64,000 nt of DNA, taken from Vicinamibacterales bacterium (lineage in GTDB: Bacteria; Acidobacteriota; Vicinamibacteria; Vicinamibacterales; JAMQPK01). The stretch is taken from assembly GCA_963825295.1 (NCBI GenBank), contig CAWGSZ010000002.1, forward strand, positions 31,762 through 95,761, given 5' to 3'. A program made the position numbers and the translations under genes. Within the stretch, counting starts at the first letter, position 1. Every line of letters starts with the position of its first letter. The notes below the pieces were generated by a model, which was given only the letters and a program-made list of their open reading frames with translations, did no database searches and was not told the origin of the DNA. This document shows positions 4,580 through 59,733 of this stretch, piece after piece.

Positions 4580-4582
4580 TCA

Positions 4583-4612
4583 GGGATTAGGGACTGGGGA
4601 TTAGGGATTAGG
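4583..4612 (+). repeat. GGGATTA-family array (G-quadruplex motif) filling the spacer before the next start codon
   Basis: Read directly: GGG atta GGG act GGGG atta GGG atta GG. It ends 2 nt before GTG 4615. Confidence 0.9.
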
Positions 4613-10274: not shown

Positions 10275-10287
10275 AGTGAATCTCAAA

Positions 10288-10357
10288 CTAGAATCTAAAA
10301 ACTAAAAACTAGAAACTACAACCGAGAACTGAAAACTGAAAACCGACGACTGAAAAC
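10288..10357. repeat. AT-rich 7-bp array (CTAGAAT/CTAAAAA/TGAAAAC), 10 units, filling the actC-actD spacer
   Basis: Read directly: ctagaat ctaaaaa ctaaaaa ctagaaa ctacaac cgagaac tgaaaac tgaaaac cgacgac tgaaaac. Confidence 0.9.
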
Positions 10358-11748
10358 TAATGAGCAGGATGCACGTCGCCCGCCACCTGCGTTCCGATGC
10401 TCGCCGGGTGATGCTCCGCCACCGTGTGTTTGGCAACCGAGTACCCCTCTTCGATCTCCCAGATGGAAATCATCGGGCTGAACTTGGCGAAGAGGAAATA
10501 CAACAGGACGAACAGGCCCAGCGTGCCCGATGCGATAGTCGCTTCAATGAGCGACGGGAAGTACGTACCGTAGTTGTACGGCAGGTACGGATGCGTGAGC
10601 GTAGGCACGATAATCAGGAACCGCTCCAGCCACATGCCGACGAGAATGCAGGTCGACGCGACGAAGATGAGCGGAATCGTCCGCAGCTTCTTGATCGCCA
10701 GAATCGGGAACGGGATCACGAAGTTGCACACGACCATCAGCCAGAAGAGCGGGGCGAAGCGGCCCGAAATCTTCGACCAGAAGACCGGCATCTCGGGCGC
10801 CTCGTTGCCGTACCACGTCACGAGGTACTCCGTGAACGTGAAGTAGAACCACAGCAGGCTCATCGCGAACAGCATTTTCGCGAGGTTGTCGAAATGGATC
10901 GGCAGCAGGTACTGCTCGAGCTTGAAGTACTTCCGGATAAGCACCATGGCGATCAGCAGCGCGGCGATACCCGAGAAGATGGCCCCGACGACGAAGTACG
11001 GTCCGAAGATGGTGCTGCGCCACATCGGCATCAGCGTCATCGCGAAGTCCCACGACACGATCGTGTGAACCGACACCGCGACCGGAATGATGATGAGCGC
11101 CATGATGGAGATGGCTTTTTCCAGCCGCACCCATTCCCGTTCCGTTCCCCGCCATCCGAGCGCGAGCATGCGGTACATCTTCTTGCGCCAGCCGGTGGCT
11201 TTATCGCGCGCGACGGCCATGTCGGGAATCATCGGCAGGTACAGGTAGGTGACGCTGCCGGTGAGGTAGGTGTTGATGGCGATGAAATCCCACATCAGCG
11301 GCGACTGGAAGTTCGGCCACAGGTACCGGTTGTTGGGCACCGGGATCATCCAGTAGAACAGCCACGCGCGTCCGAGGTGGACGATGGGAAAGAGCGAGCC
11401 GGTACAGAGGGCGAATGTGGTGATCGCTTCCGCGCACCGGGTGATCGGCCTGCGCCACTCGGCCTGCACGACCCGCAGAATGGCCGAGATGAGCGTGCCG
11501 GCGTGGCTGATGCCGATCCAGAAGACGAACGTCGTGATGTAGAGGCCCCAGAACGACGGGCGGTTCTTGCCCGCCATGCCGATGCCGTATTTCAGCTGAA
11601 AGAACCAGGCCACGAACACCATGCCCGTCACCGCGAGGAGCACGGCGAGCATGATGTAGTACTTCGGTCCGGTCTTGAAGAGCGGACCCAGCAGGTCGCG
11701 ATTGATCTGGGCTTCCGTTGGATGAAAGGGTGCCGGAGTCTGAGCCAC
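10357..11748 (-). CDS. actC: NrfD/PsrC-family integral membrane quinol-interacting subunit (ActC-like)
   Basis: ORF 10357..11748, 463 aa. It is polytopic, and its position directly after the Fe-S subunit (1-nt gap) is typical of ACIII and polysulfide-reductase-like complexes. Confidence 0.85.
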   Translation of the reverse strand: MAQTPAPFHPTEAQINRDLLGPLFKTGPKYYIMLAVLLAVTGMVFVAWFFQLKYGIGMAGKNRPSFWGLYITTFVFWIGISHAGTLISAILRVVQAEWRRPITRCAEAITTFALCTGSLFPIVHLGRAWLFYWMIPVPNNRYLWPNFQSPLMWDFIAINTYLTGSVTYLYLPMIPDMAVARDKATGWRKKMYRMLALGWRGTEREWVRLEKAISIMALIIIPVAVSVHTIVSWDFAMTLMPMWRSTIFGPYFVVGAIFSGIAALLIAMVLIRKYFKLEQYLLPIHFDNLAKMLFAMSLLWFYFTFTEYLVTWYGNEAPEMPVFWSKISGRFAPLFWLMVVCNFVIPFPILAIKKLRTIPLIFVASTCILVGMWLERFLIIVPTLTHPYLPYNYGTYFPSLIEATIASGTLGLFVLLYFLFAKFSPMISIWEIEEGYSVAKHTVAEHHPASIGTQVAGDVHPAH

Positions 11749-12443: not shown

Positions 12444-12506
12444 CCGAATCTAAAATCTAGAATCTACAATCTGAAATCTTCGAACTGATAACTGAAAACT
12501 GAAACC
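12444..12506. repeat. AT-rich 7-bp array (TAGAATC/TGAAAAC family), 9 units, filling the actB1-actB2 spacer
   Basis: Read directly: ccgaatc taaaatc tagaatc tacaatc tgaaatc ttcgaac tgataac tgaaaac tgaaacc. Confidence 0.9.
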
Positions 12507-17961: not shown

Positions 17962-18541
17962 GGTTCGCCTCATCTTCTTCGAACAATCGATCGGCTGCGA
18001 GACGTGCGCGCCGACCAGGCGCGCGCTCGAGCAGATCGTCGACGAGAACGAGCACGTGGAGCTCGAAGCGCTCAATCTCGTGCTCGACAGGGAGAAAGCC
18101 GCCGAGTACGGCGTGGATCGGGTGCCCGCGGTTATCATCGAGGCGCCCGGACGCGATCGCATTCGCTACTACGGCGCGCCGCTGGGCTACGAGTTGCCCA
18201 CGCTGGCGGAAGCCGTGCACATGGCGGCGACCGGCGAAACGCGGCTCAGCGACGAGAGCCGCGCGCAGCTGAAAGCATTGACGACACCCGTGCACCTGCA
18301 GGTGTTCTACACGCCAGGCTGCGTCTATTGCCCGCGGATGATTTCGCTGGCGAATCAAGCCGCCATCGAAAGTCCGCTCGTGACCAGCGTGGCCATCGAT
18401 GCCGCGGAGTTCCCGGATCTCGTCCGCCGCTACAACGTGAACGGCGTGCCCAAGACGGTGATCAACGACTCGCTCGAGCTCATGGGAGCCGCGCCGGAAG
18501 AGGACTTCATGGCGGCTCTTGCCCAATCCACCGGGGAATAG
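17945..18541 (+). CDS. Two-domain thioredoxin-fold protein disulfide oxidoreductase (glutaredoxin-like)
   Basis: ORF 17945..18541. The CETC and CVYC motifs sit in two thioredoxin-like halves. It overlaps the upstream gene by 17 nt. Confidence 0.75.
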   Translation: MTSSSKVRLIFFEQSIGCETCAPTRRALEQIVDENEHVELEALNLVLDREKAAEYGVDRVPAVIIEAPGRDRIRYYGAPLGYELPTLAEAVHMAATGETRLSDESRAQLKALTTPVHLQVFYTPGCVYCPRMISLANQAAIESPLVTSVAIDAAEFPDLVRRYNVNGVPKTVINDSLELMGAAPEEDFMAALAQSTGE

Positions 18542-18564
18542 GGAATAGGGATTGGGGATTAGGG
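18533..18564 (+). repeat. GGGAATA/GGGATTA array with five G-tracts (G-quadruplex motif)
   Basis: Read directly: GGGG aata GGG aata GGG att GGGG atta GGG. It contains the upstream TAG stop (18539-18541) and the downstream TTG start (18552). Confidence 0.9.
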
Positions 18565-20574: not shown

Positions 20575-22293
20575 ATGCACCTGCTCGACTGGGGAGTGAT
20601 GGCCGCCTACATCGCGTGGCTCGTGTGGGACGGCGTCAAGCGCACCAAGCTCGAGCGCACCACCGAATCGTACTTCCTGGCGAACCGATCGATGCCGTGG
20701 TGGGCCGTCGGTCTCTCGGTGATGGCCACGCAGTTGAGCGCCATCACGCTGGTCGGCACGACGGGGCAGGGCTACAACGACGGCCTGCGGTTCGTGCAGT
20801 TCTATTACGGGCTGCCGCTCGCGATGGTGATTCTGTGCGTGACGCTCGTGCCGTTCTTCTATCGAGCCAGGGTCTACACGGCGTACCAGTACCTGGAGCG
20901 GCGCTTCGATCTCAAAACACGCACGCTGACGAGCGGGCTGTTTCTCGTATCGCGCGCGATGTCGTGCGGCGCGATCGCCGCCGCCCCGGCGGTCGTGCTG
21001 TCGGTCGTGCTCGGATGGAGCGTCACGATGACGACGCTGCTGATTCTCGTGCCGGCGGTGATTTACACGATGCTCGGCGGCGTGCAGGCGGTGACCTGGA
21101 CCGACGTCAAGACGATGAGCCTGACGGTGGTGGCGCTCGTCATCGCCGTAGTGTTCCTCGTGCGGGGACTGCCCGAAGGCGTGGGCGTGGACGATGCGCT
21201 GGCAATCGCCGGCGGCACGGGCCGGCTGCAGGCCTTCGATCTGCGCTTCACGCTGACGGAAACCTACACCTTCTGGTCGGGCATGCTGGGCGGCCTCTTC
21301 CTGATGCTGTCCTATTTCGGATGCGATCAGAGCCAGGTGCAGCGGTATCTCACGGCGAAATCCGAGGATGCCGCCAAGACGTCGTTGTTGATGAGCGCGT
21401 ACTGGAAGATTCCTCTCCAGGTGCTCGTCCTCGTCGTCGGCGTCCTCACGTTCGTGTTCTATCTGTTCAACCAGCCGCCGCTCTTGTTCAACCCGATTCA
21501 CGACCAGCGCGTGCGGACGGGCGAATCGGCGCCGGCATATGCGGCGCTGCAGCGCGAGTTCCAGACGACGTTCGACGCGCGCCGGCAGGCGGCGGTCGAG
21601 ATGGCCGCGGCCCGCCACGCGCACGATGTGCGCGAACAGGCGCGCGCGACCGACGAGTTCAGCCGGCAGGATCGGACGTTGCGATCGATCAGGACGAAGG
21701 CGGCATCGCTCGTCAAACAAACGACGGGCGACTCGAATTACAACGACGTGAACTACGTGTTTCCCACCTGGATTATGACGGCGCTTCCGATCGGCATCGT
21801 GGGGCTGTGGATCGCCGCCATCATTACGGCCGCGACAGATTCGATTGCGGCCGAGCTGAACTCGCTGTCGACCGCCTCGGTCATCGACTTCTACAAGCGG
21901 CTGGCGCAGCCTTCGGCATCGGACGCGCACTATCTGTTTGTGTCGCGGGCCACCACCGGGTTCTGGGGTGTGTTCGCCGGCTTTGTCGCCGTGTACGCGA
22001 GCAGCCTCGGGTCGCTCATCGAGGTGGTGAACCGGTTCGGGTCGTTTTTCTACGGCTCGATTCTCGGGGTGTTCATGCTGGCGATTCTCACGCGCCGCGC
22101 GACGGGTACGGGAGCCTTTGTTGGCCTCCTCACGGGCATGGTCGCGGTGGCGTCGGTTGCCTTCGGCCGGCCGGACATTTCGTTCCTGTGGCACAACGTG
22201 ATCGGCGCCGTCGTGGTCTTCAGCGTTGGTTCGCTGGTGAGCCTCTTTACAGATCACGCTCTTACAGAAGATCAGAAGATCAGAAGAAAATAA
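20575..22293 (+). CDS. Sodium:solute symporter family transporter
   Basis: ORF 20575..22293, 572 aa, polytopic. It has an SSF-like N-terminus (YFLANRSMPWWAVGLSVMATQLSAITLVGT). Confidence 0.85.
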   Translation: MHLLDWGVMAAYIAWLVWDGVKRTKLERTTESYFLANRSMPWWAVGLSVMATQLSAITLVGTTGQGYNDGLRFVQFYYGLPLAMVILCVTLVPFFYRARVYTAYQYLERRFDLKTRTLTSGLFLVSRAMSCGAIAAAPAVVLSVVLGWSVTMTTLLILVPAVIYTMLGGVQAVTWTDVKTMSLTVVALVIAVVFLVRGLPEGVGVDDALAIAGGTGRLQAFDLRFTLTETYTFWSGMLGGLFLMLSYFGCDQSQVQRYLTAKSEDAAKTSLLMSAYWKIPLQVLVLVVGVLTFVFYLFNQPPLLFNPIHDQRVRTGESAPAYAALQREFQTTFDARRQAAVEMAAARHAHDVREQARATDEFSRQDRTLRSIRTKAASLVKQTTGDSNYNDVNYVFPTWIMTALPIGIVGLWIAAIITAATDSIAAELNSLSTASVIDFYKRLAQPSASDAHYLFVSRATTGFWGVFAGFVAVYASSLGSLIEVVNRFGSFFYGSILGVFMLAILTRRATGTGAFVGLLTGMVAVASVAFGRPDISFLWHNVIGAVVVFSVGSLVSLFTDHALTEDQKIRRK

Positions 22294-22320
22294 TGGTCTT
22301 CTGACCTTTTGATCTTCTGT
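22266..22320. repeat. 8-bp array AGAAGATC, 3 copies, followed by its reverse complement TCTTCTGA, 3 copies (hairpin, terminator-like)
   Basis: agaagatc agaagatc agaagaaa, ataatgg, tcttctga ccttttga tcttctgt. The stem is about 23 bp with 3 mismatches. The left arm encodes the symporter tail EDQKIRRK. Confidence 0.85.
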
Positions 22321-36586: not shown

Positions 36587-36655
36587 GATGGCAATGGCGG
36601 ATGGCAGATGGCAACGACAACCATCTGCCATCTGCCATGTGCCATCTGCCATGAC
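36587..36655. repeat. Dyad-symmetric 7-bp array: GATGGCA, 4 copies, then CCATCTG, 5 copies (long hairpin between convergent genes)
   Basis: gatggca atggcg gatggca gatggca, acgacaa, ccatctg ccatctg ccatgtg ccatctg ccatgac. Confidence 0.9.
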
Positions 36656-37845: not shown

Positions 37846-38698
37846 TCAGTAGCGCGCGCCGGGCAGCGCGCGCTGTCCGCCCAGAAGCAGCGCGTCGGCC
37901 ATTTCGCCCAGCGCGAGGCGCAGCGCGAAGGCGGGCGCCGGCAGCAGGCTGGGGCGGTGCAATGCGCGTCCGAGCGCCTTCGAGAATTCCGCATTCGTCA
38001 CCGGTGCGGGACTGGTGGCGTTCAGCGCTCCGCGCGCGCCTTCGTGCGTCATCGCCCATGTCACAAGCCGTACCCAGTCCTCCTTGTGGATCCACGGCAT
38101 GTACTGACGTCCCGATCCCAGCGGGCCGCCGACGAACAATTGAAAGGGCGGCAGCATTTTCGGCGAGCGCGCCTCCGTTGCGATCGAGCACGATGCCGGT
38201 CCGTACGAGCGCCACGCGCGTCAGATCGGCCACCTGATCCGCCGCGGCCTCCCAGGCTTCGGCGACGCCGGCCAGAAAATCCTTTCCGGGTGCAGACGAT
38301 TCGGTAATCGTTTCGTCGCCGCGATCGCCGTAGTAACCGACGGCCGATCCGCTGACGAGGACCTTTGGCGTACGGGCCACCTGGCGGATGGCGGCCGTCA
38401 GGCTTGCGGTCGCGCGCAGCCGGCTCTCACGGATTTCCTGTTTCTGCCGATCGGACCAGCGCCTGGCGGCAATGGACTCGCCCGCGAGATTGACCACGGC
38501 GTCGGCGCCATCGAGGGCCGCGGCCCACGCGCCGCTGGTGCCGTCGGGCGTCCAGGCGACATGGGTCACACGCGGCTGTGGGGGCACGGACGCGGGGTTC
38601 TGGCGAGTGAGCACCGCGACGTCGTGGCCGTCGCGCGTGAGGGCCTGTGTGAGGGCGGTGCCGAGGAAGCCGGATCCGCCGGCAAGAGTGATCTTCAT
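37846..38698 (-). CDS. NAD-dependent epimerase-like protein (YfcH/TIGR01777-like, DUF1731 C-terminus), apparent frameshift
   Basis: The N-terminus is MKITLAGGSGFLGTALTQAL (ATG 38698). The C-terminus lies in ORF 37846..38157 (MLPPFQLFVGGPLGSGRQYMPWIHKEDW). The two join at about 38160-38165 if one base is removed. The read-through frame fuses artificially to the next gene. Confidence 0.75.
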
Positions 38699-38716
38699 AG
38701 GCCAAGGATAGGCCGC

Positions 38717-38759
38717 TTGACAGGCGGGGAGCACCTGAGTTAACTAAATGGTCAGTTAA
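38717..38759 (+). promoter_or_regulatory. Candidate sigma-70 promoter (TTGACA, 17 nt, TTAACT) with an overlapping inverted repeat TTAACT-N8-AGTTAA (possible TetR operator)
   Basis: TTGACA lies at 38717-38722, followed by a 17-nt spacer and TTAACT at 38740-38745. AGTTAA lies at 38754-38759. The ATG of the TetR gene is at 38763, with no Shine-Dalgarno sequence. Confidence 0.45.
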
Positions 38760-38762
38760 TTA

Positions 38763-39537
38763 ATGGCCCGGCCCAAAGCCCCCACCTCCGACACCCGGCA
38801 CCGCATCCTCGCCGCCGCCGCCGCCGAGTTCGGCGACCACGGCTTCGCCGCGACCACCATCGACCGCATCGCCAGGCGCGCACGCGTCAACAAGGCGATG
38901 ATTTACTACCACTTTCCCAACAAGCGCGCCCTCTACACCTCCATCATTCGCGACGTCTTCCGGCCCATCACCGAACGCACCCGGGCCGTCATCGCCGACG
39001 ATCTCCCCGCCGATCGCAAGCTCGACCGCGTGATCGAAACCATCGTCGCCTCGCTCGACGAATCGGCGCATTTCCTCCCGATCTTCCTGCGCGAAATCGC
39101 CGACGGCGGCGCGCATCTGGGACCCGACGAGCTGGCCCTCATCGCCGGCATGTTTGCCGCGGTCAGCGGCGTCATCGCCGAGGGCGGCAGGCAGAAGGTC
39201 TTTCAGCCCGTCCATCCCGCGCTGGCGCACTTCACGATCATCGCGCCGCTCGTGATGTTCCGTGCGGCCGCACCCGTCCGCGCGCGGATCAGAAGCCGTA
39301 CGGCACGTCGATATTCCCGAAGCCGACTCGGCCACGCTCGTCCGGCATCTGCAAATGGTGGCAAGGCGCATGCTGAGTCCGGAGCGTGAGAGTCCGGAGA
39401 GTCTCGAGAGTCGGAAGAGTCTCGAGAGTCAAAAGAGTCCCGAGAGTCAGAAGAGTCTTGGGAGTCCGAAGAGTCCCGAGAGTCCTGAGAGTCACAAGAG
39501 TCCAAGTGTCAGAGAGTCGGCGAAGAGAGGCTTATGA
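38763..39537 (+). CDS. TetR family transcriptional regulator, apparent frameshift, with a repeat-encoded C-terminal tail
   Basis: It has the HTH region ILAAAAAEFGDHGFAATTIDRIARRARVNKAMIYYHF. After about 39270-39300 the listed frame becomes Arg-rich with A/T third positions. The +1 frame (ORF 39262..39537) reads AVRHVDIPEADSATLVRHLQMVARRML with G/C third positions. That frame runs through the 9-bp array to a stop overlapping the next ATG. Confidence 0.7.
39388..39504 (+). repeat. 9-bp tandem array RAGAGTCNN, 13 copies
   Basis: gagagtccg gagagtctc gagagtcgg aagagtctc gagagtcaa aagagtccc gagagtcag aagagtctt gggagtccg aagagtccc gagagtcct gagagtcac aagagtcca. Degenerate units flank it on both sides. 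Confidence 0.95.
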
Positions 39538-40541
39538 AAGCGATCACTGTGTTGGTCATGATGACGGCGGCCTTGCTGTGCGGTGCGTGTCAGGAGCAGG
39601 CGCCCGCGACCGCCGCGCGCGTGTCGGGGCAGGCGGATGCGACCGAAGTGCAGGTGGCTCCGGAAGTGGGCGGGCGCATCCTCGAACTCGCGATTCAGGA
39701 AGGCGATCGCGTCTCGCGGGGCGCCCTCATCGCGCGCCTCGATTCTCGTGATGCCGACCTGGCGCTGAAGCGCGCCGAAGCCGAACGCGCGCAGGCCGAC
39801 GCGCAGCTTCGGCTGTTGCAGGCGGGCTCGCGCCCCGAGGACATCAGGCAGGCCGAGGCGCAGGCGGCCGCCGCGGCGGCCGATGTGGCCGCGGCCCAGG
39901 CCGACCTGTCCGCGGCCGAAACGGATCTCCAGCGATTCGAGCGTCTGCTGCAGTCCAACTCGGGGTCGCAAAAGCAGCGTGACGACGCGGCTACGCACAG
40001 GAACGTGGCCAGAGATCGCCTTGCCGCCGTGCGAGCGCGCGAGGCCGCGGCCGGCGCCACCGTGGCACGTTTGAAGGCCGGCTCGCGCCGCGAGGAAATC
40101 GACGCGGCCCGTGCGCGCGTGGCGGCCGTGGACGCCCAGATTGCGACGCTCGAAAAATCCAAGGCCGACGCCACCGTGACCGCTCCCATCGACGGCATCG
40201 TCACCGAGCGGTTGCTCGAGCTGGGCGAGATGGCGGCGCCGCGTGCGCCGATTGTGGTCGTCACCGATCTCGATCATGCCTGGGCGGAAGTGTTCGTCGA
40301 CGAGCCGATGATTCCCCGCATCAAGCTGGGACAGGCGGCCACCGTGTTCACCGACGCCGGTGGGCCGGGCCTTCCGGGAAAGGTGAGCTACATGGCGTCG
40401 AAGGCGGAGTTCACGCCGCGCAACGTGCAGACGGCGGACGACCGGTCGAAGCTCGTGTTCCGCGTCCGCATCGCGGTGGACAACAAGCAGGGGATTCTGA
40501 AGCCGGGCATGCCGGTGGAGGCGGAGATTCCGTTTCAGTAA
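39534..40541 (+). CDS. HlyD-family membrane fusion (periplasmic adaptor) protein
   Basis: ORF 39534..40541. It has a lipoprotein-like N-terminus, a coiled-coil-rich middle, and the C-terminal motif GMPVEAEI. Confidence 0.85.
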   Translation: MKAITVLVMMTAALLCGACQEQAPATAARVSGQADATEVQVAPEVGGRILELAIQEGDRVSRGALIARLDSRDADLALKRAEAERAQADAQLRLLQAGSRPEDIRQAEAQAAAAAADVAAAQADLSAAETDLQRFERLLQSNSGSQKQRDDAATHRNVARDRLAAVRAREAAAGATVARLKAGSRREEIDAARARVAAVDAQIATLEKSKADATVTAPIDGIVTERLLELGEMAAPRAPIVVVTDLDHAWAEVFVDEPMIPRIKLGQAATVFTDAGGPGLPGKVSYMASKAEFTPRNVQTADDRSKLVFRVRIAVDNKQGILKPGMPVEAEIPFQ

Positions 40542-40542
40542 G

Positions 40543-40598
40543 TGGAGTAAAAAGTCAAAAGTGAAAAGTGAAAAGTGAAAAGTTGAAGGTGAACGAGA
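40543..40598 (+). repeat. 7-bp array AAAAGTG, about 8 units, filling the hlyD-ABC spacer
   Basis: (gtggagt) aaaagtc aaaagtg aaaagtg aaaagtg aaaagtt gaaggtg aacgaga. It ends 1 nt before ATG 40600. Confidence 0.9.
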
Positions 40599-40599
40599 C

Positions 40600-41535
40600 A
40601 TGAAAGCGCTCGAGCTGGATCGCGTGACGAAGAAGTACGGCACGGTCGTGGCGGTGCGCGATCTGTCGTTTTCGGTCGAGCGCGGCGAGATGTTCGGGCT
40701 CATCGGGCCGGATGGTGCGGGCAAGACGACGACGATTCGGCTGATGTGCGGGTTGCTGAAGCCCGACAACGGGGCGGTTCGGGTGCTCGGCAACGATCCG
40801 GTGAAGGCGCACAGGACCGTGACGAGCGATCTGGGCTATCTCTCGCAGCGCTTCAGCCTGTATGGCGATCTGTCCATCGACGAAAACATCGCGTTCTTCG
40901 CCGAGATTCACGGCCTCCGCATGGGCGATCCGGCCATCCGCGAGCGGCGCGAGCGGCTGCTCGAGCTGACGCAGCTCACCCGGTTCCGCTCGCGTCTCGC
41001 CGACGCGTTGTCCGGCGGCATGAAACAGAAGCTCGCGCTCGCCTGCACGCTCGTGCACGAGCCGCGCATCATCCTGCTCGACGAACCGACGACGGGTGTC
41101 GATCCGGTGTCACGCCGCGAGTTCTGGAAGCTCCTCTCAGAGTTTCTCGCGCAGGGCATCACGATTCTCATGGCCACGCCGTATCTCGACGAAGCCGAGC
41201 GATGTTCACGCGTCGCGCTGATGCACGAAGGACAACTGCTCGCGCTCGATACGCCGAATCACCTGCGAACGACGCTTCCAGGCACCGTCGTCGAAGTGAT
41301 TGCACCCGACCGCGATCGCGCGATGGGCGTCCTGGAACGCCTGAGCGGCGTGGCCGATGTGCAGTTGTTTGGCGAGCGGGCGCACGTCAGGTTCGAGCCC
41401 GGGGCCGAGCTGAGCGATCCAGACCGCCTGCGGGCTGCGCTTCAGGCCGCGGCTGTGAACGTGGACGGCGTGCGGCGGGTGCCGGCGTCGCTGGAGGATG
41501 TGTTCATTGCGCGTGTAGCCAAGGAAACAACATGA
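40600..41535 (+). CDS. ABC transporter ATP-binding protein
   Basis: Walker A GPDGAGKTT, signature LSGGMKQKL and Walker B ILLDEPT. Confidence 0.9.
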   Translation: MKALELDRVTKKYGTVVAVRDLSFSVERGEMFGLIGPDGAGKTTTIRLMCGLLKPDNGAVRVLGNDPVKAHRTVTSDLGYLSQRFSLYGDLSIDENIAFFAEIHGLRMGDPAIRERRERLLELTQLTRFRSRLADALSGGMKQKLALACTLVHEPRIILLDEPTTGVDPVSRREFWKLLSEFLAQGITILMATPYLDEAERCSRVALMHEGQLLALDTPNHLRTTLPGTVVEVIAPDRDRAMGVLERLSGVADVQLFGERAHVRFEPGAELSDPDRLRAALQAAAVNVDGVRRVPASLEDVFIARVAKETT

Positions 41536-42884
41536 AACGCCGATTGCTCGTCGCTCTCAGTTTTTCTCTTATGGCCGCGGCCGATGCCGCGTTTGCCCAG
41601 ACCGGATCCGTTCGCCTGACGCTCGACGAAGCCGTGACGCGAGGCCTGGCAGCCAGCGATCGTCTCGACGAGCTGAGCGCCCGTCAGGAGGGCGCGCGCG
41701 CCGTGGCGGATCAGCGAAAGTCCGCGGGCCGTCCGCAGCTTGCCGCGCGCGGCAGCTACATCCGCACGAACCACGTTGAAGAGTTCAGCCTGCCGAGTGC
41801 CGTTCCCGGTGTCCGGCTGCTCATCTATCCCGATCTTCCCAACAACGTGCAGACGGGTGTGGATCTGCAGTGGCCGATCTACACGGCGGGCCGCATATCG
41901 GGACTGACGCGCGCGGCCGGCGCCGAGGTCGAGGCCGCCGGGCACGATCGCGACGCCGCGCGGGCCGATCTGAAGCTCGAAATCACGCGATCGTTCTGGG
42001 CGGTCATTACCGCGCGGGCCGCGGCTGATGTCGTGCGGCAGGCCCTCGACCGGACGAACGCCCACCTCATCGACGTGCGCAATCAGTTGGACGTCGGGCT
42101 CGTTCCGCCGAGCGATGTCCTCACGATCGAAGCGCAGCTGGCGCATCAAAGGACGCTGAGCATCGAGGCGGACAACATTGTGGAGTCGACGTCGGCCGAG
42201 TTCCGGCGCCTGGCCGGCCTTGATCCGGAAGCGCCGTTCGACCTGGCGGCCGTTCTCGGCCCTGAGGGTCCGGGCGCTCCTATGCCGCCGCCGCAGACGT
42301 CCGTTCCAGCGTCTGGCGCGGCATTCGATCTCGCAAGAGCCAATCGGGCCGAGCGCAAGGCGCTCCAATTCCGCATCAATGCAGCCTCCGAGCGCGCCAG
42401 TGCCGCATCAGCTGGAGGCCTGCCGACGGTCTCTGCGCTGGGCGGGTACGACTTCGCCCGGCCGAACCGCAAGATTTTTCCGGTGCGCGAGGCGTGGCAG
42501 TCGACGTGGGAACTCGGTGTCCATGTCCGCTGGTCGTTCTTTGATGGTGGTCGGGTGCACGCCGAAACCGCTGAGGCGGTTGCCGCCCGGCGTGGCCTGG
42601 AAGCGCGCTTGAGGGAGTTCGACGGTCTCGTGCAGGTGGAGATCCGCCAACGGATGGCCGATCTGGACTCGTCGCGGGCGTCGATCGAGGCAGCGCGGTC
42701 CGGCGTGCGCTCGGCAACCGAGGCGCGACGCGTGCTGGCCGAACGATTCAGCGCGGGGGTCGCGACCAACACCGACGTGCTGAACGCCCAGGTCGCGCTG
42801 CTGCAGGCCGAGCTCGACTTGACCCGCGCGCTGGCCAACGCCGAACTCAACGCGGCACGGCTCGACCGCGCACTGGGACGATGA
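41532..42884 (+). CDS. TolC-family outer membrane efflux protein
   Basis: This is the tail of ORF 40746..42884. Its ATG 41532 overlaps the upstream stop (ATGA). It has the signal peptide MKRRLLVALSFSLMAAADAAFAQ and two TolC-like repeats. Confidence 0.85.
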   Translation: MKRRLLVALSFSLMAAADAAFAQTGSVRLTLDEAVTRGLAASDRLDELSARQEGARAVADQRKSAGRPQLAARGSYIRTNHVEEFSLPSAVPGVRLLIYPDLPNNVQTGVDLQWPIYTAGRISGLTRAAGAEVEAAGHDRDAARADLKLEITRSFWAVITARAAADVVRQALDRTNAHLIDVRNQLDVGLVPPSDVLTIEAQLAHQRTLSIEADNIVESTSAEFRRLAGLDPEAPFDLAAVLGPEGPGAPMPPPQTSVPASGAAFDLARANRAERKALQFRINAASERASAASAGGLPTVSALGGYDFARPNRKIFPVREAWQSTWELGVHVRWSFFDGGRVHAETAEAVAARRGLEARLREFDGLVQVEIRQRMADLDSSRASIEAARSGVRSATEARRVLAERFSAGVATNTDVLNAQVALLQAELDLTRALANAELNAARLDRALGR

Positions 42885-43810
42885 CCGGACAAGACGCGAT
42901 TGTCGTTCGCGATCTCACGCGGAAGTTCGGCGCGTTTACCGCCGTCGATCGCATCAGCTTCGAGGTGTCGCGCGGCGAGATCTTCGGCTTCCTGGGCGCC
43001 AACGGCGCCGGCAAGTCGACGACGATCCGGATGATGTGCGGCTTGCTGAAGCCGACATCCGGAACGGCCGTGGTCGATGGCGTCGACGTCACGCGCGAGC
43101 CGGAAGAGGTGAAGCGGCGCATCGGCTACATGTCGCAGAAGTTCTCTCTCTACGAATCGCTGACCGTCGAGCAGAACATCCGGTTCTTCGGCGCACTCTA
43201 CGGCCTCTCGGACGCCAGGACCGCCGAACGCATGAAGTTCGTCGTGTCGATGGCCGGTCTTGCGGGCCGCGAAGGGACGAAGGCCCGCGACCTGGCTGGC
43301 GGCTGGCGCCAGCGGCTGGCGCTCGGCTGCGCCATCCTCCACCAGCCGCGCATCGTGTTTCTCGACGAGCCAACGGGAGGCGTCGACCCCGTCTCGCGCC
43401 GGCAGTTCTGGCGCCTCATCGAGGACATGTCGCGCGACGGCGTGACGATCCTCGTCACCACGCACTACCTGGATGAGGCGGAGCATTGCCATCGCATTGC
43501 GATCGTCAACGCCGGCAAGCTGGCGGCCATGGGCACGTCGCGTGAATTGAAGGAGGTGTTCGCGAGGCGTCCGATCCTCGAGATTCACTCCGCCCGTCCC
43601 GTGGACGTGATGCGCGTGCTCGAAGAGATGCCGGAGATCGAGAAGACGTCGGTCTTTGGAACCGCCGTCCACGCCGTATTGAAGTCGCCCGAGGTCGATC
43701 TGCCGGGCTTGACGAGACAACTGAACGCGCGCGGCCTCGAGATTGGCGGCATCGATCGCGTGATGCCTTCGCTCGAGGACGTGTTTCTCGACGTGGTGGA
43801 GCATGCGTAA
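42881..43810 (+). CDS. ABC transporter ATP-binding protein
   Basis: Walker A GANGAGKST, signature LAGGWRQRL and Walker B VFLDEPT. It has an ATGA overlap with tolC. Confidence 0.9.
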   Translation: MTGQDAIVVRDLTRKFGAFTAVDRISFEVSRGEIFGFLGANGAGKSTTIRMMCGLLKPTSGTAVVDGVDVTREPEEVKRRIGYMSQKFSLYESLTVEQNIRFFGALYGLSDARTAERMKFVVSMAGLAGREGTKARDLAGGWRQRLALGCAILHQPRIVFLDEPTGGVDPVSRRQFWRLIEDMSRDGVTILVTTHYLDEAEHCHRIAIVNAGKLAAMGTSRELKEVFARRPILEIHSARPVDVMRVLEEMPEIEKTSVFGTAVHAVLKSPEVDLPGLTRQLNARGLEIGGIDRVMPSLEDVFLDVVEHA

Positions 43811-44921
43811 GGCGCTCGCGGTGGGCCGCAAGGAGTTTCACCAGATCGCGCGCGATCGCCGGTCGCTGATGGTCCTGCTGTTCGTGCCGGCGTTCTTTCT
43901 GCTGCTCTACGGCTACGCGCTGAACTTCGACGTGTCGAACATCCGGCTCGCCGTCGAGGACAACGATCGGACGCCGGCGAGCCGCGAGCTCGTGAACGCG
44001 TTCGTCCAGTCCGGCTACTTCGATCTGGCCGCGAGCGTGTCGAGCAGCCGGGAGTACGAAAGCCTCATCGACAGCGGGGACGTGCGGGTGGCGCTCGTCA
44101 TTCCGCCGGGCTACCAGGAAGATCTCCTGACAGGCCGGCGGGTTCCGGTGCAGGTGATCATCAACGGAGACAACTCGAACACGGCGACGACCGTCATGGG
44201 ATATGTCCTCCGTGTTCTGCAATCGGCGTCGGCCCCGTATCAAGTGCGCACGTCGGGGCCACAGCCGGCGGCCCTGCCGATTTCCGTCGAATCACGCGTC
44301 TGGTACAACCCCCAGCTGCGCAGCGCGCTCTTCCTGATCCCGGGCCTCATCGCCTACATCGGCATGATCTCCGCGGTGATTTCGACCACGCTGTCGGTGG
44401 TTCGCGAGAAGGAGCGCGGCACGATGGAGCAGATTCGCATGGCGCCGATCGGCACGGGCGCCTACATCGTCGGCAAGACGCTGCCGTATTTTGCCATCTC
44501 GCTCGCCACGTCGGTCTTCGTCGTGCTGGCGTCGATGGTGCTGTTCGATCTTCCCATGAACGGCTCGTGGCTGGTGCTGCTGCTGACCCTGTCGCTGTAC
44601 CTGGCTGGTGCGCTCGGGATGGGGCTGATGATTTCAACGCTCGCCGAATCGCAGCAGGTGGCGTTTCAGCTCGCCGTGCTCGCGTCGTTTCTGCCGACGA
44701 TGATGCTGTCGGGGTTCGTGTTTCCGATCGCGAGCATGCCGGCCGCGATTCAGGCCATCACGTACATCGTGCCGGCGCGCTACTTCATCGTCGCGCTGCG
44801 TGCCATCGTGCTGAAGGGCGCCGCGCTCGCGACATTCTGGACCCAGCTCGCGGCGCTGGCCATTTTCGCCGCCGTCACGCTGACGCTCGCATCGGCGCGC
44901 CTGAGGCGTCAATGGCTGTAA
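43803..44921 (+). CDS. ABC-2 type transporter permease
   Basis: ORF 43803..44921. It has one N-terminal TM helix, a large loop, and a 5-TM C-terminal block typical of YbhS/YbhR-like permeases. Confidence 0.85.
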   Translation: MRKALAVGRKEFHQIARDRRSLMVLLFVPAFFLLLYGYALNFDVSNIRLAVEDNDRTPASRELVNAFVQSGYFDLAASVSSSREYESLIDSGDVRVALVIPPGYQEDLLTGRRVPVQVIINGDNSNTATTVMGYVLRVLQSASAPYQVRTSGPQPAALPISVESRVWYNPQLRSALFLIPGLIAYIGMISAVISTTLSVVREKERGTMEQIRMAPIGTGAYIVGKTLPYFAISLATSVFVVLASMVLFDLPMNGSWLVLLLTLSLYLAGALGMGLMISTLAESQQVAFQLAVLASFLPTMMLSGFVFPIASMPAAIQAITYIVPARYFIVALRAIVLKGAALATFWTQLAALAIFAAVTLTLASARLRRQWL

Positions 44922-46073: not shown

Positions 46074-46148
46074 AAGAGATTAAGAGATTAGAAGAATAGA
46101 ATCTGTTCAGAAAAGACTCGTCGTCTTCTGATTCTTCTGACCTTCTGT
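46074..46148. repeat. 8-bp array AAGAGATT/AGAAGAAT, 4 copies, then TCTTCTGA-type units, 3 copies (same family as 22266-22320)
   Basis: aagagatt aagagatt agaagaat agaatctg, ttcagaaaagactcgtcg, tcttctga ttcttctga ccttctgt. It is preceded by gccaaa gccaaa. Confidence 0.85.
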
Positions 46149-46172
46149 TTAACCGGTGATACGCTCTTCGGG

Positions 46173-48414: not shown

Positions 48415-48986
48415 TGAGCCTGTACGAGATCCCGTTGACGACAATCGACGGCCAGACGGTCACGCTCGATCGCTACCGTGGGAAGAGGCTCCTCATCGTG
48501 AACGTGGCGAGCCGGTGCGGGTTCACCCCTCAATACAAGGGACTGGAAGAGCTCTACCGGCGGCGCAAGGACGATCTCGTCGTCCTCGGGTTCCCCTGCA
48601 ATCAATTCGGCCGTCAGGAGCCTGGCAGCAACGAGGAGATACGCCAGTTCTGCGACGACTATTGCAGCGTGACGTTTCCGCTGTTCGCCAGAATCGAGGT
48701 CAACGGCGCGAACGCGCACCCGCTGTTTCGCTTTCTGAAAGCGGAGAAAAGAGGATTTCTGGGACGCGAAGCGATTGCGTGGAACTTCACGAAGTTCCTC
48801 GTTGGACCCGGCGGCGACGTGCTGAAGCGCTACGGGTCGCGCGTGAAGCCGGAAGCCATCGAGAAGGAGCTGTACGGGTTCGTCAGGTTCGTGAGGTTCG
48901 TGGGTTCGTCAGGTTCGACGAACTTACGAACCGACGAACTTGACGAACCCGACGAACCGACAAGGTATTCTCATGACAGACGATGA
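48414..48986 (+). CDS. gpx: Glutathione peroxidase (Cys type) with a repeat-encoded C-terminal extension
   Basis: This is the tail of ORF 48354..48986, starting at ATG 48414 (TGATG overlap). Motifs: NVASRCGFTPQY, LGFPCNQFGRQEPG and WNFTKFLV. The last ~35 aa (GFVRFVRFVGSSGSTNLRTDELDEPDEPTR...) are translated from the 9-bp array. Confidence 0.85.
   Translation: MSLYEIPLTTIDGQTVTLDRYRGKRLLIVNVASRCGFTPQYKGLEELYRRRKDDLVVLGFPCNQFGRQEPGSNEEIRQFCDDYCSVTFPLFARIEVNGANAHPLFRFLKAEKRGFLGREAIAWNFTKFLVGPGGDVLKRYGSRVKPEAIEKELYGFVRFVRFVGSSGSTNLRTDELDEPDEPTRYSHDRR
48876..48962. repeat. Dyad-symmetric 9-bp array: GGTTCGTNN, 5 copies, then NNACGAACC-type units, 5 copies
   Basis: gggttcgtc aggttcgtg aggttcgtg ggttcgtc aggttcgac, then gaacttac gaaccgac gaacttgac gaacccgac gaaccgaca. 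The arms can pair over about 40 nt. Confidence 0.9.
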
Positions 48987-54238: not shown

Positions 54239-55221
54239 TGTACCGGCAACTCGGTAGAAGCGGCTTGAGGGTATCGGCGATTGGCCTGGGGTGCATGGGC
54301 ATGTCGCAGAGCTACGGGACGCCCGACGCCGACGAATCCATTCGCACGATCCATCGCGCCCTCGACCTCGGCGTCACGCTCGTGGATACGGCGAACGTGT
54401 ACGGCAAGGGAGAGAACGAGGAGCTCGTGGGCCGCGCCATTCGCGACCGGCGGAAAGAGGTGGTGCTGGCGACGAAGTTCGGCCTCAGCATGGGTGCCAG
54501 CGCGATGTCGGCGGGCGTTGACGCCAGGGCCGAGCTCGTCGGGCCGTCGTGCGACGCGAGCCTCGCCCGTCTCGGGGTGGACGTCATCGATCTCTACTAC
54601 CTCCACCGCGTCGATCCCGGGGTGCCCATCGAAGAGACGGTTGGGGCGATGGCGGATCTCGTTCGCGCAGGGAAAGTGCGCTTTCTCGGGCTGTCGGAAG
54701 CGGGTCCAGACACATTGCGCCGCGCGGCGAAGATTCATTCCATCGCCGCGCTTCAGTCGGAGTTCTCGCTCTGGTCGAGAGATCCGGAGCGGGGCGTGCT
54801 CTCAGCGTGCCGCGAGCTTGGCATCGGCTTCGTGCCATTCAGCCCGCTCGGCCGCGGGTTCCTGACCGGCACGGTGAAGGACACCGGCGGTCTCGTGGAG
54901 AACGACGTCCGCCGGCATCTGCCGCGCTTTCAGCAGGAGAACATTTCCCGGAACGTGCGTCTTGTCGAAGGTCTCGAGGGCATGGCGCGCTCGAAGGGCT
55001 GCTCGGCGGCGCAGCTCGCGCTCGCGTGGCTGCTGCACAAGGGCGACGACATCGTGCCCATTCCCGGCACGAAGCGCCTCCGGTACCTGGAAGAGAACGT
55101 CGAAGCCGTGAACATCACGCTGACGCCTCGAGAAATGAGCGAGCTCGATGACTCGTTTCAGGCCGGCGCCGTCGCGGGCGAGCGTTACGGACCTGAGAGC
55201 CTGAAGTTGGTGGAAAACTAG
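54235..55221 (+). CDS. Aldo/keto reductase
   Basis: It starts [24 protein letters not shown], with the ATG overlapping the corrected upstream stop (ATGA). Other motifs are LVDTANVYG and LGLSEAG. Confidence 0.85.
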
Positions 55222-55270
55222 AATCTAAAATCTAGAATCTAGAACTAAAATCTAGAATCTGAATAGAATC
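55219..55270 (+). repeat. AT-rich 7-bp array TAGAATC/TAAAATC, about 7 units; the first unit contains the AKR stop codon
   Basis: Read directly: tagaatc taaaatc tagaatc tagaac taaaatc tagaatc tgaatag aatcttc. Confidence 0.9.
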
Positions 55271-55278
55271 TTCGAGCA

Positions 55279-55572
55279 ATGCACTACCTGCTTTTTTACG
55301 AAGCCGGGGCGGATTATGCGGAACGGCGGCAGCCGTTCCGGGTGGCACATCTCCAGCACGCGCGCAATGCGGTCGCACGCGGCGAGCTCGTGCTCGGCGG
55401 CGCGCTGGCCAATCCGATCGATGGAGCCGTGCTGCTGTTCCGCGGCGATTCGTCAGCCGCCGCGGAGCAGTTTGCGAAAACCGATCCCTACGTGACGAAC
55501 GGCGTCATTCAGCGATGGCACGTGCGCGAATGGACGACGGTTGTGGGTAACGATGCTGAAACTAAAATCTAA
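55279..55572 (+). CDS. YciI family protein
   Basis: ORF 55279..55572. It reads MHYLLFYEAGADYAERRQPFRVAHLQHARNAVARGELVLGGAL. The last codons (AETKI) come from the next array. Confidence 0.8.
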   Translation: MHYLLFYEAGADYAERRQPFRVAHLQHARNAVARGELVLGGALANPIDGAVLLFRGDSSAAAEQFAKTDPYVTNGVIQRWHVREWTTVVGNDAETKI

Positions 55573-55610
55573 AAACTAGAATCTAGAATCTGGAATCTGA
55601 AACCTTAAGA
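55556..55610 (+). repeat. AT-rich 7-bp array CTAAAAT/CTAGAAT, about 8 units
   Basis: Read directly: ctgaaa ctaaaat ctaaaaa ctagaat ctagaat ctggaat ctgaaac cttaaga. Confidence 0.9.
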
Positions 55611-58550: not shown

Positions 58551-58620
58551 GATCTAGAAACCAGGAACTGAGATCCAGAGATTTCAGATTCTAGTTTGTA
58601 GATTTTAGTTTCTAGATTCA
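58551..58620. repeat. Dyad arrangement of the CTAGAAA-family 7-mers: 4 forward units then 6 reverse-complement units
   Basis: ctagaaa ccaggaa ctgagat ccagag, then agatttc agattct agtttgt agatttt agtttct agattca. tctagaaac (58553) pairs with gtttctaga (58608). It abuts the stop of the YVTN gene. Confidence 0.85.
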
Positions 58621-59733
58621 GCGAATAGCCACGCCCCACGGACTCCGGCCGCCGGGCACCGTCGCGATGACCGCCATCGTCTCGGCGTCGATGACGGAGA
58701 TGTCGTTCGACGGGCCGTTGGCGGTGTAGAGGCGCTTGCCGTCGGGCGAAATGCCTACACCCCACGGCCGCTGGCCCGCCTTCACGGATCCCACCACCTC
58801 GTCCTTGGCCGTATCGATGGCAAGGAGCATCGTGCCCCGGCCGGTGGTGACGTACACGCGCTTGCCGTCGGGCGCGGCGATGACGCCCATCGGTCTCGCG
58901 AGCTCGCCGGTGATCTTGAGCGTCTTGGTCACCGAGTGATTTTTCGTGTTGATGACGTGCACGGTGCCGCCGTTCTCGGCCGTGATGTACGCCTTCGAGC
59001 TGTCTGGTAGAAATTCCGACGATCGGGGGCGCGCGCCGACCTCGAACTGCTTGATCGCCTTGTTGGTGGCGGTGTCGATGACCGTAATCTGATTGTCCTC
59101 TTCCGACGTGACGTACACCCACTGACCGTTCGGGCTCGTCGTGACGCCCTCCGGCTCGCCGCCGACCTTCACTTCCCCGATCACCTTGTTGCTGGCGACG
59201 TCGAGGATGCTCGCGACGCCCGCGTCCTCGTTCGACACGTAGACCTTCGAGCCGTCCGCGCTCAGCGAAATTTGCTCGGGGTCCGATCCGCTGGTGAGCA
59301 CGGTCGTGACTTTCCGCGCCGCGATGTCGACCACGCCTATGCCGTCGGCAGTCCGGTCGGGGGGCGGTAGCTTGCTCTCATCCGTTCCCGGTGGCGCCAT
59401 CGGCGACCCGCTGAGCGCGACGAACAGCTTCGTCCCGTCCGGGCTCACCTTGATGCCCCTCGGTCGCTTGCCGAGCGGGATCGTCGTGACGACCTGATTC
59501 GTGCCGCCATCGATGACAGTCAGATCGCCGCCGATTTCATTCGTGACATAGACGTAATACGGCGCTTTCGGCGGCTCCGGCGCGGGTGCCGCCGGCGGAG
59601 GAGCGGCAGCCTGTTCAGGCTGCGGCTGACCACCGCCGCACCCGGAAATCGCGGCCAGCAAGATCAGCGAAGAAAGCGTGACGCGCGCGTTCAGAGCTAA
59701 TCCCCAATCCCTAATCCCTAATCCCTTGCTCAT
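58618..59733 (-). CDS. YVTN-family beta-propeller repeat lipoprotein
   Basis: ORF 58618..59733. It has the lipobox LLAAISGC and repeats YVTNE, YVSNED, YVTSEED, YITAENG and YVTTGRG. A GGAGAG ribosome-binding site lies 6 nt upstream of the ATG. Confidence 0.8.
   Translation of the reverse strand: MSKGLGIRDWGLALNARVTLSSLILLAAISGCGGGQPQPEQAAAPPPAAPAPEPPKAPYYVYVTNEIGGDLTVIDGGTNQVVTTIPLGKRPRGIKVSPDGTKLFVALSGSPMAPPGTDESKLPPPDRTADGIGVVDIAARKVTTVLTSGSDPEQISLSADGSKVYVSNEDAGVASILDVASNKVIGEVKVGGEPEGVTTSPNGQWVYVTSEEDNQITVIDTATNKAIKQFEVGARPRSSEFLPDSSKAYITAENGGTVHVINTKNHSVTKTLKITGELARPMGVIAAPDGKRVYVTTGRGTMLLAIDTAKDEVVGSVKAGQRPWGVGISPDGKRLYTANGPSNDISVIDAETMAVIATVPGGRSPWGVAIR
59702..59725 (-). repeat. GGGATTA array (four G-tracts on the minus, sense strand) in codons 4-11 of the YVTN gene
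   Basis: The plus strand reads cccc aat ccc taat ccc taat ccc. The minus strand reads GGG atta GGG atta GGG att GGGG. Confidence 0.9.

Follow-up and report, generated by a model that had tools for sequence, protein, structure and literature searches.

What is a tandem repeat doing at the boundary of two co-oriented genes, and does the upstream gene encode it? The question is raised by a 64,000-nt stretch of a Vicinamibacterales (Acidobacteriota) genome (contig CAWGSZ010000002.1, positions 31,762 to 95,761; below, the window), in which thirteen 9-bp units lie between the conserved part of a tetR-family regulator gene and hlyD, encoding a membrane-fusion protein of an efflux system. Our best explanation, which we hold to be probable, is that the array is a slippage-generated, translated junction repeat tolerated as a variable C-terminal tail of TetR, and that the C at position 39296, which breaks the deposited regulator frame, is an error. 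Junction repeats driven by slippage are numerous in this lineage, and the array is best seen as one of them that lies inside an open reading frame (ORF) because the two genes overlap.

The element in question is the following.

39388-39504, forward strand: array of 13 units of 9 bp, RAGAGTCNN, with a partial 18-bp super-period (Tandem Repeats Finder, TRF; shuffles; indels relative to contig L204)

A preliminary description of this DNA had reported 13 copies in strict 9-bp phase at these positions, and both the coordinates and the unit count are correct. TRF assigns to 39388-39504 a period of 9 with 12.9 copies, about 70% matches and a score of 92, and to 39388-39518, a super-period of 18 bp (GAGAGTCNN-AAGAGTCNN) with 7.4 copies, 80% matches and a score of 143, the top TRF score in the window. 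The three-unit pattern is matched 11 times, compared to 0.00 expected from 100 dinucleotide-preserving shuffles. The spacer dinucleotide varies in most of the 13 units, unit 9 is odd (GGGAGTC), and degenerate units are seen on both sides of the array (CTGAGTCCG at 39371; AGTGTCAGA and GAGTCGGCG at 39505-39522). The array end lies 15 nt 5' of the hlyD ATG, running into the putative purine-rich ribosome-binding site (RBS) of hlyD.

Whether the array is translated depends on the tetR frame upstream of it.

38763-39375, forward strand: tetR core, helix-turn-helix and helical ligand/dimerisation domain to ...RRML, broken by a 1-bp insertion (Pfam, homology, AlphaFold2 model of orthologue P0001)
39296, forward strand: window-specific extra C, AGAAG[C]CGTACGG, absent from L001, L002, L003, L005, L200 and L204

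As deposited, the tetR ORF spans 38763-39389 and encodes 208 amino acids (aa), its stop at 39387-39389 falling on the first bases of the array. The TetR_N domain (PF00440) occupies residues 15-59 (E=1.4e-17, 63.6 bits with a cut-off of 24), and the core shares 97-99% identity with those of P0001, P0123 and L001-L003. A search with the spliced query yielded 1449 relatives, of which the best 120, all of them Vicinamibacterales TetR proteins of 204-278 aa, are used in the comparisons below. In all 120 the segment ...ARIRxVRHVDIPEADSxTLVRHLQMVARRML is uninterrupted in one frame. The apparent frameshift, placed earlier at about 39270-39300, is indeed present, at 39296, and the suggestion that the regulator continues in the other frame is borne out by the orthologues, the window differing from them by one extra C that turns a single C into CC. 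The translation quoted for that frame is exact as well (ORF 39262-39537, with the TGA at 39535-39537 overlapping the hlyD ATG at 39534-39536). The frameshift costs TetR its ...VRHVDIPEADSATLVRHLQMVARRML, that is helix 189-204 in the AlphaFold2 model of P0001, which comprises 10 helices with a core pLDDT (predicted local distance difference test) of 73-97; this helix lies in a block of about 91, and the segment is conserved across the 120 orthologues. Hence the ORF as given lacks an intact C-terminal ligand/dimerisation domain, and the same ORF without the extra C has one. Programmed frameshifting at 39296 is ruled out, because every orthologue is in frame there.

If the frameshift were genuine, tetR would be truncated or a pseudogene, the array would be an untranslated intercistronic spacer like the AGTGAAA array farther downstream, and the efflux operon would be derepressed. 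The window sequence does stop at 39387-39389, and the public record apparently annotates the same product: the NCBI/ENA protein P0121 (cluster of P0001), of 208 aa, is identical to the frameshifted ORF, so that the truncated product is what that record carries. Exact-product look-ups of the window TetR and HlyD returned nothing on record. Untranslated arrays are also found at the tetR-hlyD junction in L013 and, in part, in L015, and the G+C content of third codon positions (GC3) is high in no frame of the array, being about 0.5-0.6 in each; the G/C-rich third positions by which the frame had initially been followed hold for 39300-39375 only. Against this stands the uniqueness of the insertion. 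It is absent from the four related genomes used as frameshift comparators (L001, L002, L003, L005), whose flanks are 93-97% identical to the window, and from the Illumina contigs L200 and L204, the latter 98.0% identical to the window over 1051 nt, with an identical 204-aa TetR core. Moreover, it only lengthens C to CC, and within the same 8.6 kb the window has three further 1-bp insertions not found in the four genomes (35897, 37861, 38162), two of which, 37861 and 38162, split the neighbouring YfcH-like epimerase (Epimerase and DUF1731 domains) into three frames. This pattern suggests uncorrected long-read indels; related long-read metagenome-assembled genomes (MAGs) are likewise riddled with singleton indels. 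We regard a genuine frameshift as unlikely, and the extra C as most likely a long-read assembly error, judging from these alignments. An independent 1-bp deletion is seen in L005 at ~4526 (aligned to ~39290 of the window), near the window insertion and beside a GATC; the two indels may reflect a systematic basecalling problem at this sequence.

In the corrected frame the junction comprises three features.

39376-39537, forward strand: TetR C-terminal tail, SPERESPESLESRKSLESQKSPESQKSLGSPKSPESPESHKSPSVRESAKRGL followed by the stop, 53 aa (translation; homologous tails in P0001, P0002, P0003, P0004, P0123)
39522-39530, forward strand: Shine-Dalgarno-like purine-rich GAAGAGAGG, putative RBS of hlyD, also encoding the conserved ...AKRG of the tail (conservation)
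39534-39537, forward strand: ATGA overlap of the hlyD start and the tetR stop (12/25 orthologous loci)

TetR without the extra C has 257 aa, the 204-aa core plus SPERESPESLESRKSLESQKSPESQKSLGSPKSPESPESHKSPSVRESAKRGL, read through the array to the TGA at the hlyD ATG. The same arrangement is found in Illumina contigs: in L200, in L201 and L202 (two independent samples) and in L204 the ORF stays in frame through the array to ATGA, all four sharing the end GAAGAGAGGCTTATGA, with gene calls starting hlyD 4 bp into tetR. Among Vicinamibacterales orthologues the tail length varies from 0 to 74 aa, and in 22/120 it does not exceed 3 aa. Besides L200, L201, L202 and L204, the overlap is present in 12 of 25 orthologous loci, including L008 and L016, which have no array and end with ...RRML-HV-TGA directly on the hlyD ATG. 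Since such array-free relatives end in this way, the tetR/hlyD overlap is apparently the ancestral state, with the array apparently inserted 5' of it. The element GAAGAGAG-N4-5-ATGA is conserved in L001-L010 and L026, which explains the recurrent ...KR[DGH][LI] C-termini in 48/120 orthologues. The tails are rich in R, S, E, A, G, K and P, with hydrophobic residues nearly absent, and that of P0001 has a pLDDT of 50-57 (AlphaFold2, low confidence); the TetR tail is hydrophilic, variable in length and probably disordered. We infer that it is translated in vivo, and that, apart from accommodating the repeat, it would serve little if any specific function.

The array length is polymorphic among near-identical strains. 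Only three indels separate L204 from the window, namely the 1-bp C and two gaps of 9 and 45 bp in the array (7 units versus 13). Across genomes whose TetR core is at least 96.5% identical to that of the window, the unit numbers are ~2, 2, 7, 9, 10-12 and 13. By locus, there are 13 units in the window, 7 in L200 and L204, ~10 in L201/L202 and ~2 in each of L003 and L005, with 2 to ~12 over L001-L005. In other clusters, whose proteins share at least 90% identity, the array may be present or absent (228 vs 208 aa), or differ by 24 bp, that is three 8-bp units (233 vs 225 aa). Copy-number change in frame-preserving steps, as initially anticipated, is evident from the 13 units of the window compared to 7 in L204, ~10 in L201 and ~2 in L003/L005. 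The accompanying proposal of a contingency locus holds in the weak sense of copy-number polymorphism, not in that of a switch: there is no on/off switching, because 9-bp steps cannot shift the frame, and the units are imperfect (70% matches). A consensus scan found no promoter- or terminator-like site in the array and no promoter-like site after it.

What is propagated is, as far as the comparison of junctions indicates, the DNA motif GAGTC and not a peptide. GAGTC recurs at the junction with a spacing of 9 bp in the clade of the window, of 8 bp in L009, L010 and L026, and of 7 bp in L203 (21-bp super-period), and these spacings encode quite different peptides; a second clade has AGAGCAR heptamers at the same junction. 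The tripeptide-repeat tail, described from this sequence alone, is therefore not conserved as such. The tail also shows a lack of codon adaptation: 15 of its 16 serine codons are AGT, the rarest serine codon (2% in 21 window genes), and it ends in TTA, which accounts for 0.3% of leucine codons. In 703 kb of related DNA, GAGTC arrays are confined to the tetR-hlyD junction, plus one antisense case.

Farther afield, GAGTC arrays with 8-9-bp spacing fill intergenic spacers up to the next ATG in L159 (reverse strand, ~3230-3330), L094 (~1960-2115) and L166 (reverse strand, 1296-1363), and L174 (reverse strand, 1338-1500) has a GAGTC-based array with an inverted GACTC partner array downstream; these are other soil metagenome contigs, the first three being Acidobacteria-like. 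In a metagenome scan with GAGTC-N4 x 4, none of the 120 loci listed had tetR or hlyD, and the matches were mostly generic 9-bp coding repeats from many organisms. A restriction-modification or methylation reading of GAGTC, as a GANTC-type site, was rejected: outside the array the motif appears depleted three-fold under a first-order Markov model (26 and 33 observed vs ~91 expected), and this depletion vanishes under the maximal-order model (observed-to-expected ratio 0.85-0.89 in three sequence sets, where GAGTC ranks 172-338 among 1024 pentamers).

The junction further differs from the next spacer of the operon in its stop triplets, counted on the sense strand in any frame, with expectations from shuffles.

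19 tetR-hlyD junctions: 20 stop triplets observed, 59 expected, median 1.2 per 100 nt
15 hlyD-ABC spacers: 62 stop triplets observed, 43 expected, median 7.7 per 100 nt

The two sets differ with p=3e-4 (Mann-Whitney), and the shortage at the tetR-hlyD junction is consistent with ribosomes having to traverse the array before they arrive at the stop/start overlap.

The following course of events would account for these data. A slippage-generated short tandem repeat would have lodged between the TetR core and the hlyD RBS and start, in an efflux operon of which tetR is the first gene in this lineage, its stop overlapping the hlyD ATG (ATGA). Since the stop overlaps the start, any insertion upstream would lengthen the translated C-terminus of TetR, except where it brought a stop codon. 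Intact alleles would yield TetR with a hydrophilic, probably disordered tail, of 53 aa here and of 0-74 aa in relatives. The repeat would propagate as DNA (core GAGTC), with indels of units changing the tail length between close strains, and the arrays found at this junction would be those keeping the ORF passable; they are stop-poor in all frames and vary mostly in 9-, 18-, 21- or 24-bp steps.

Several observations weigh against this reading. The sequence as given does stop at 39389. Early stops occur in 8/25 orthologous loci, the array of L013 being wholly untranslated; five long-read MAGs are out of phase at the junction; and four Illumina-era alleles of one cluster end in ESRRK and a stop, which comparison with the L007 junction DNA suggests to lie ~14 nt before the ATG. 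The stop-triplet contrast comes from related, non-independent loci with two motif families only. Finally, the array region folds better than shuffles, so an RNA-level role is possible. Strict frame conservation of the tail was considered and is not upheld, as early-stop and out-of-phase alleles exist.

In L001 (4612-4700) and L002 (4612-4740), and also in L010, L019 and L021, the array length either fuses tetR to the hlyD frame or puts it out of phase, and one TetR-HlyD fusion of 565 aa is called as an ORF (P0122). Such fusions in long-read MAGs are probably indel errors inside the repeats, since L201 and L202, the Illumina counterparts of L002, are in phase.

The folding observation bears on the idea that the array is an RNA or DNA structural element, in which intercistronic hairpins of near-palindromic GAGUCUCGAGAGUC units would stabilise or process the mRNA or gate hlyD initiation. 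The folding z-score against shuffles is -4.3 for 39360-39560 and -5.1 for the array alone, with two 32-nt hairpins, one of them fitting in the odd GGGAGTC unit through a CCCGAG/CUUGGG pairing; a similar hairpin is kept in L200, and other arrays of the window form inverted arms (36587-36652, 22265-22310, 48877-48961). However, GANTC is intrinsically near-palindromic, so that any such tandem array folds, relatives fold weaker or differently (z-score -1.5 in L009 and -1.9 in L201), there is no Rfam match in 38000-41000 at E<=1, and the hairpins would be melted by translating ribosomes. On balance we find this very unlikely.

A different possibility is that the array is a tuning ("rheostat") locus, heritable changes of unit number altering TetR activity via the length of the tail, or the coupling and re-initiation of hlyD via distance, the run of rare AGT codons, or Shine-Dalgarno-like GGAG/GAGAG units, with sub-populations differing in efflux expression. 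The variation in copy number between near-identical strains would suit such a role, as would the position of the array end 15 nt before the hlyD ATG, merging into the purine-rich RBS, and the 15 rare AGT codons just 5' of the coupled start; the depletion of stop triplets suggests that ribosome transit matters, and TAACTGA heptamer arrays have been proposed to act on translation initiation (PMC4679880). On the other hand, 9-bp steps give no on/off switch, units only ~70% alike lower the slippage rates, and similar arrays occur at housekeeping junctions throughout the window. The array is also dispensable, because it is absent from 22/120 orthologues and others stop before it. A role in tuning hlyD translation is possible, and as an explanation of the locus we consider it unlikely. 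Extended to the lineage, the same idea would make the junction arrays of Vicinamibacterales a general evolvable post-transcriptional layer, each array lying just 5' of a start codon and setting initiation or coupling strength by unit number and motif. The means may be Shine-Dalgarno-like GGAG/GAGAG units, rare-codon runs or sites for RNA-binding proteins; at the tetR-hlyD junction the device would have to operate within an ORF, and this would account for the restriction of that junction to stop-free motifs, and strain-level unit changes would tune efflux-pump expression. We regard this extension as quite unlikely.

The tolerated, translated junction repeat that we prefer belongs to an operon with the following further features.

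38717-38762, forward strand: putative tetR promoter and operator, TTGACA at 38717-38722, 17-nt spacer, TTAACT at 38740-38745 (17/17 loci)
39534-40541, forward strand: HlyD/YbhG-like membrane-fusion protein (Pfam HlyD_D23 7.1e-20, HlyD_3 1.4e-18)
40546-40583, forward strand: junction array AGTGAAA x 5.4, between the hlyD stop and the ABC ATPase ATG at 40600 (TRF; spacers of relatives)
40600-41535, forward strand: ABC ATPase (Pfam)
~41547-42884, forward strand: outer-membrane efflux protein (Pfam OEP)
42881-43810, forward strand: second ABC ATPase (Pfam)
43803-44921, forward strand: ABC-2 permease (Pfam)

An inverted repeat, TTAACT-N8-AGTTAA (38740-38759), overlaps the second hexamer, and the tetR ATG follows 3 nt later. 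TTGACA and the palindrome TTAACTAAAyGgTCAGTTAA are at the same position in 17/17 loci inspected; the putative promoter is not called by the consensus scan because its -10 hexamer is non-canonical. The upstream site is likely a promoter combined with a TetR operator, the leader being very short or absent. The array was also considered as a TetR operator and rejected, as its units are direct repeats situated at the gene's 3' end, and the conserved upstream palindrome is a better candidate. Together, the conserved upstream hexamers with the palindrome and the gene order indicate a putative autoregulated efflux operon, resembling cecR-ybhGFSR in architecture only.

The tetR array has many counterparts in the window. 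At least 17 further low-GC arrays with 7-9-bp units are present, nearly all of them outside the crude ORF set; of 20 crudely defined spacers (15-300 bp) nine have an array, and for several arrays the distance to the following start codon is 0-16 nt. These arrays are AT-richer than the genome and fall into at least eight motif families (GGGATTA, CTAGAAT/CTAAAAT, AACTGAA, ACGAACC, CAGAAGAT, GATGGCA, AGTGAAA and GAGAGTC); CGCACCTAT is also among the 7-9-bp repeats. Motifs turn over at one orthologous position, as they differ in the hlyD-ABC spacer of almost every relative (L001-L026): AAGTAAA, GGGATTA, GGGCTGA x 11, AACTGAA, AAGTCGN, or none with overlapping genes. The window being full of such arrays, the tetR array would be one instance of a lineage-wide phenomenon at the level of DNA.

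GGGATTA/GGGAATA arrays of ~4-6 units are situated at gene boundaries (1396-1439, 4578-4612, 18534-18564, and 59697-59726 on the reverse strand), and are similar to repeats of Xanthomonas and Nostoc, GGGNATC and GGGGAYT, that form G-quadruplexes (PMC4692102). At 59697-59733 (reverse strand), GGATTAG x 4 immediately follows an ATG with a good GGAGAG Shine-Dalgarno sequence (MSKGLGIRDWGLAL...); this array may be translated at the protein N-terminus, or the true start may lie downstream. AT-rich heptamer arrays are found in operon spacers (10285-10360, 12447-12504, 55218-55271, 55559-55602, 58582-58619), their units AAACTAA, AATCTAA, CTAGAAT, CTAAAAT and AACTGAA having a GC content of 0.24-0.38 in a 65% GC window; AACTGA units, similar to the TAACTGA repeats known from Beggiatoaceae and cyanobacteria (PMC4679880), are present at 12483-12504 and 10313-10360. 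Finally, inverted-arm arrays of heptamers to nonamers are seen at 36587-36652, 22265-22310, 46074-46150 and 48877-48961 (e.g., GATGGCA x 4 followed by CCATCTG x 4.6, and GGTTCGTCA x 4.7 followed by ACGAACC units); the predicted long hairpins, situated between genes that are convergent or consecutive, would be terminator-like or stabiliser-like.

As regards annotation, a 1-bp long-read error probably accounts for the deposited 208-aa TetR, the neighbouring epimerase seems broken in a similar manner, and caution is needed with repeat-bearing junctions in such MAGs, among them those that seem to fuse TetR to HlyD in L001 and L002. The locus is a case of a slippage-prone repeat placed between overlapping genes, where it would be expressed as a translated, probably disordered tail; the length shifts from one near-identical strain to the next, and the motifs seen there are without stop triplets. 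The wider point may matter more: an abundant, poorly studied soil lineage has many hypervariable 7-9-bp arrays at operon junctions, some of the window heptamer types being already described from cyanobacteria, Beggiatoaceae and Xanthomonas. What such repeats do is a question decades old, and a second, phylogenetically remote lineage rich in them, with many long-read genomes, would allow for comparative tests.

Compared with the contingency loci of Haemophilus and Neisseria, the array is alike in being a tandem repeat in or near a gene with unit number differing between close strains (13 vs 7 units next to an identical core). Unlike these loci, it has a unit length that is a multiple of three, and a change of units (indels of 9 and 45 bp relative to L204) does not switch expression by shifting the frame; instead of a long tract of identical units it has imperfect ones (70% matches at period 9, 80% at period 18); and the gene encodes a regulator of an efflux operon, not a surface structure.

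In the E. coli cecR(ybiH)-ybhGFSR system a TetR-family gene comes first, followed, in the same orientation, by genes for a YbhG-type fusion protein, ABC ATPase(s) and ABC-2 permeases. The window operon shares this order (TetR-family regulator, YbhG-type fusion protein, ABC ATPases, ABC-2 permease), with scores far below the equivalog cut-offs (PRK03598, the NCBIfam HlyD/YbhG model, 196.6 bits on HlyD vs 393; the CecR model, 29 bits on TetR vs 365), so that the similarity does not reach the equivalog level; unlike the E. coli system, it has an added gene for an outer-membrane factor. We know of no repeat tail of CecR.

As in translationally coupled gene pairs, the stop of tetR overlaps the hlyD start (ATGA at 39534-39537 in the corrected frame), the TGA falling on the hlyD ATG both in array-free and array-bearing relatives; unlike in such pairs, the last ~50 codons of the upstream ORF are a variable repeat and not conserved protein.

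The closest likeness is to the bacterial intergenic heptamer repeats, which include the short tandemly repeated repetitive sequences (STRR) of cyanobacteria, the TAACTGA repeats of Beggiatoaceae, cyanobacteria and Bacteroidetes (MacGregor, 2015, PMC4679880), and the GGGNATC repeats of Xanthomonas and Nostoc (Rehm et al., 2015, PMC4692102). The array and its siblings in the window match this known class; our literature search found no description of junction heptamer repeats in Vicinamibacterales. Alike are the 7-9-nt tandem units of variable copy number, with many arrays per genome, and their concentration in short spacers of co-oriented genes, often a few nucleotides from the next start or overlapping a stop. 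The units of the class, about 7 (6-9) nt in two to tens of copies, have their equivalents here (9 nt x 13 in the window, 7 nt in L203, 8 nt in L009/L026), many arrays of the 64-kb window lie in short spacers near ORF ends, and the window even has GGGATTA-type and AACTGA-type arrays. When inside ORFs, heptamer repeats are at the protein periphery (PMC4679880), as here. The differences are that the class has one dominant motif per genome and the window has at least eight families, and that forward TAACTGA contains stops in all frames and the motif families at the tetR-hlyD junction are stop-poor. The host is a member of Vicinamibacterales (Acidobacteriota), the motif is GAGTC-based, and the array lies inside a reading frame because the flanking genes overlap.

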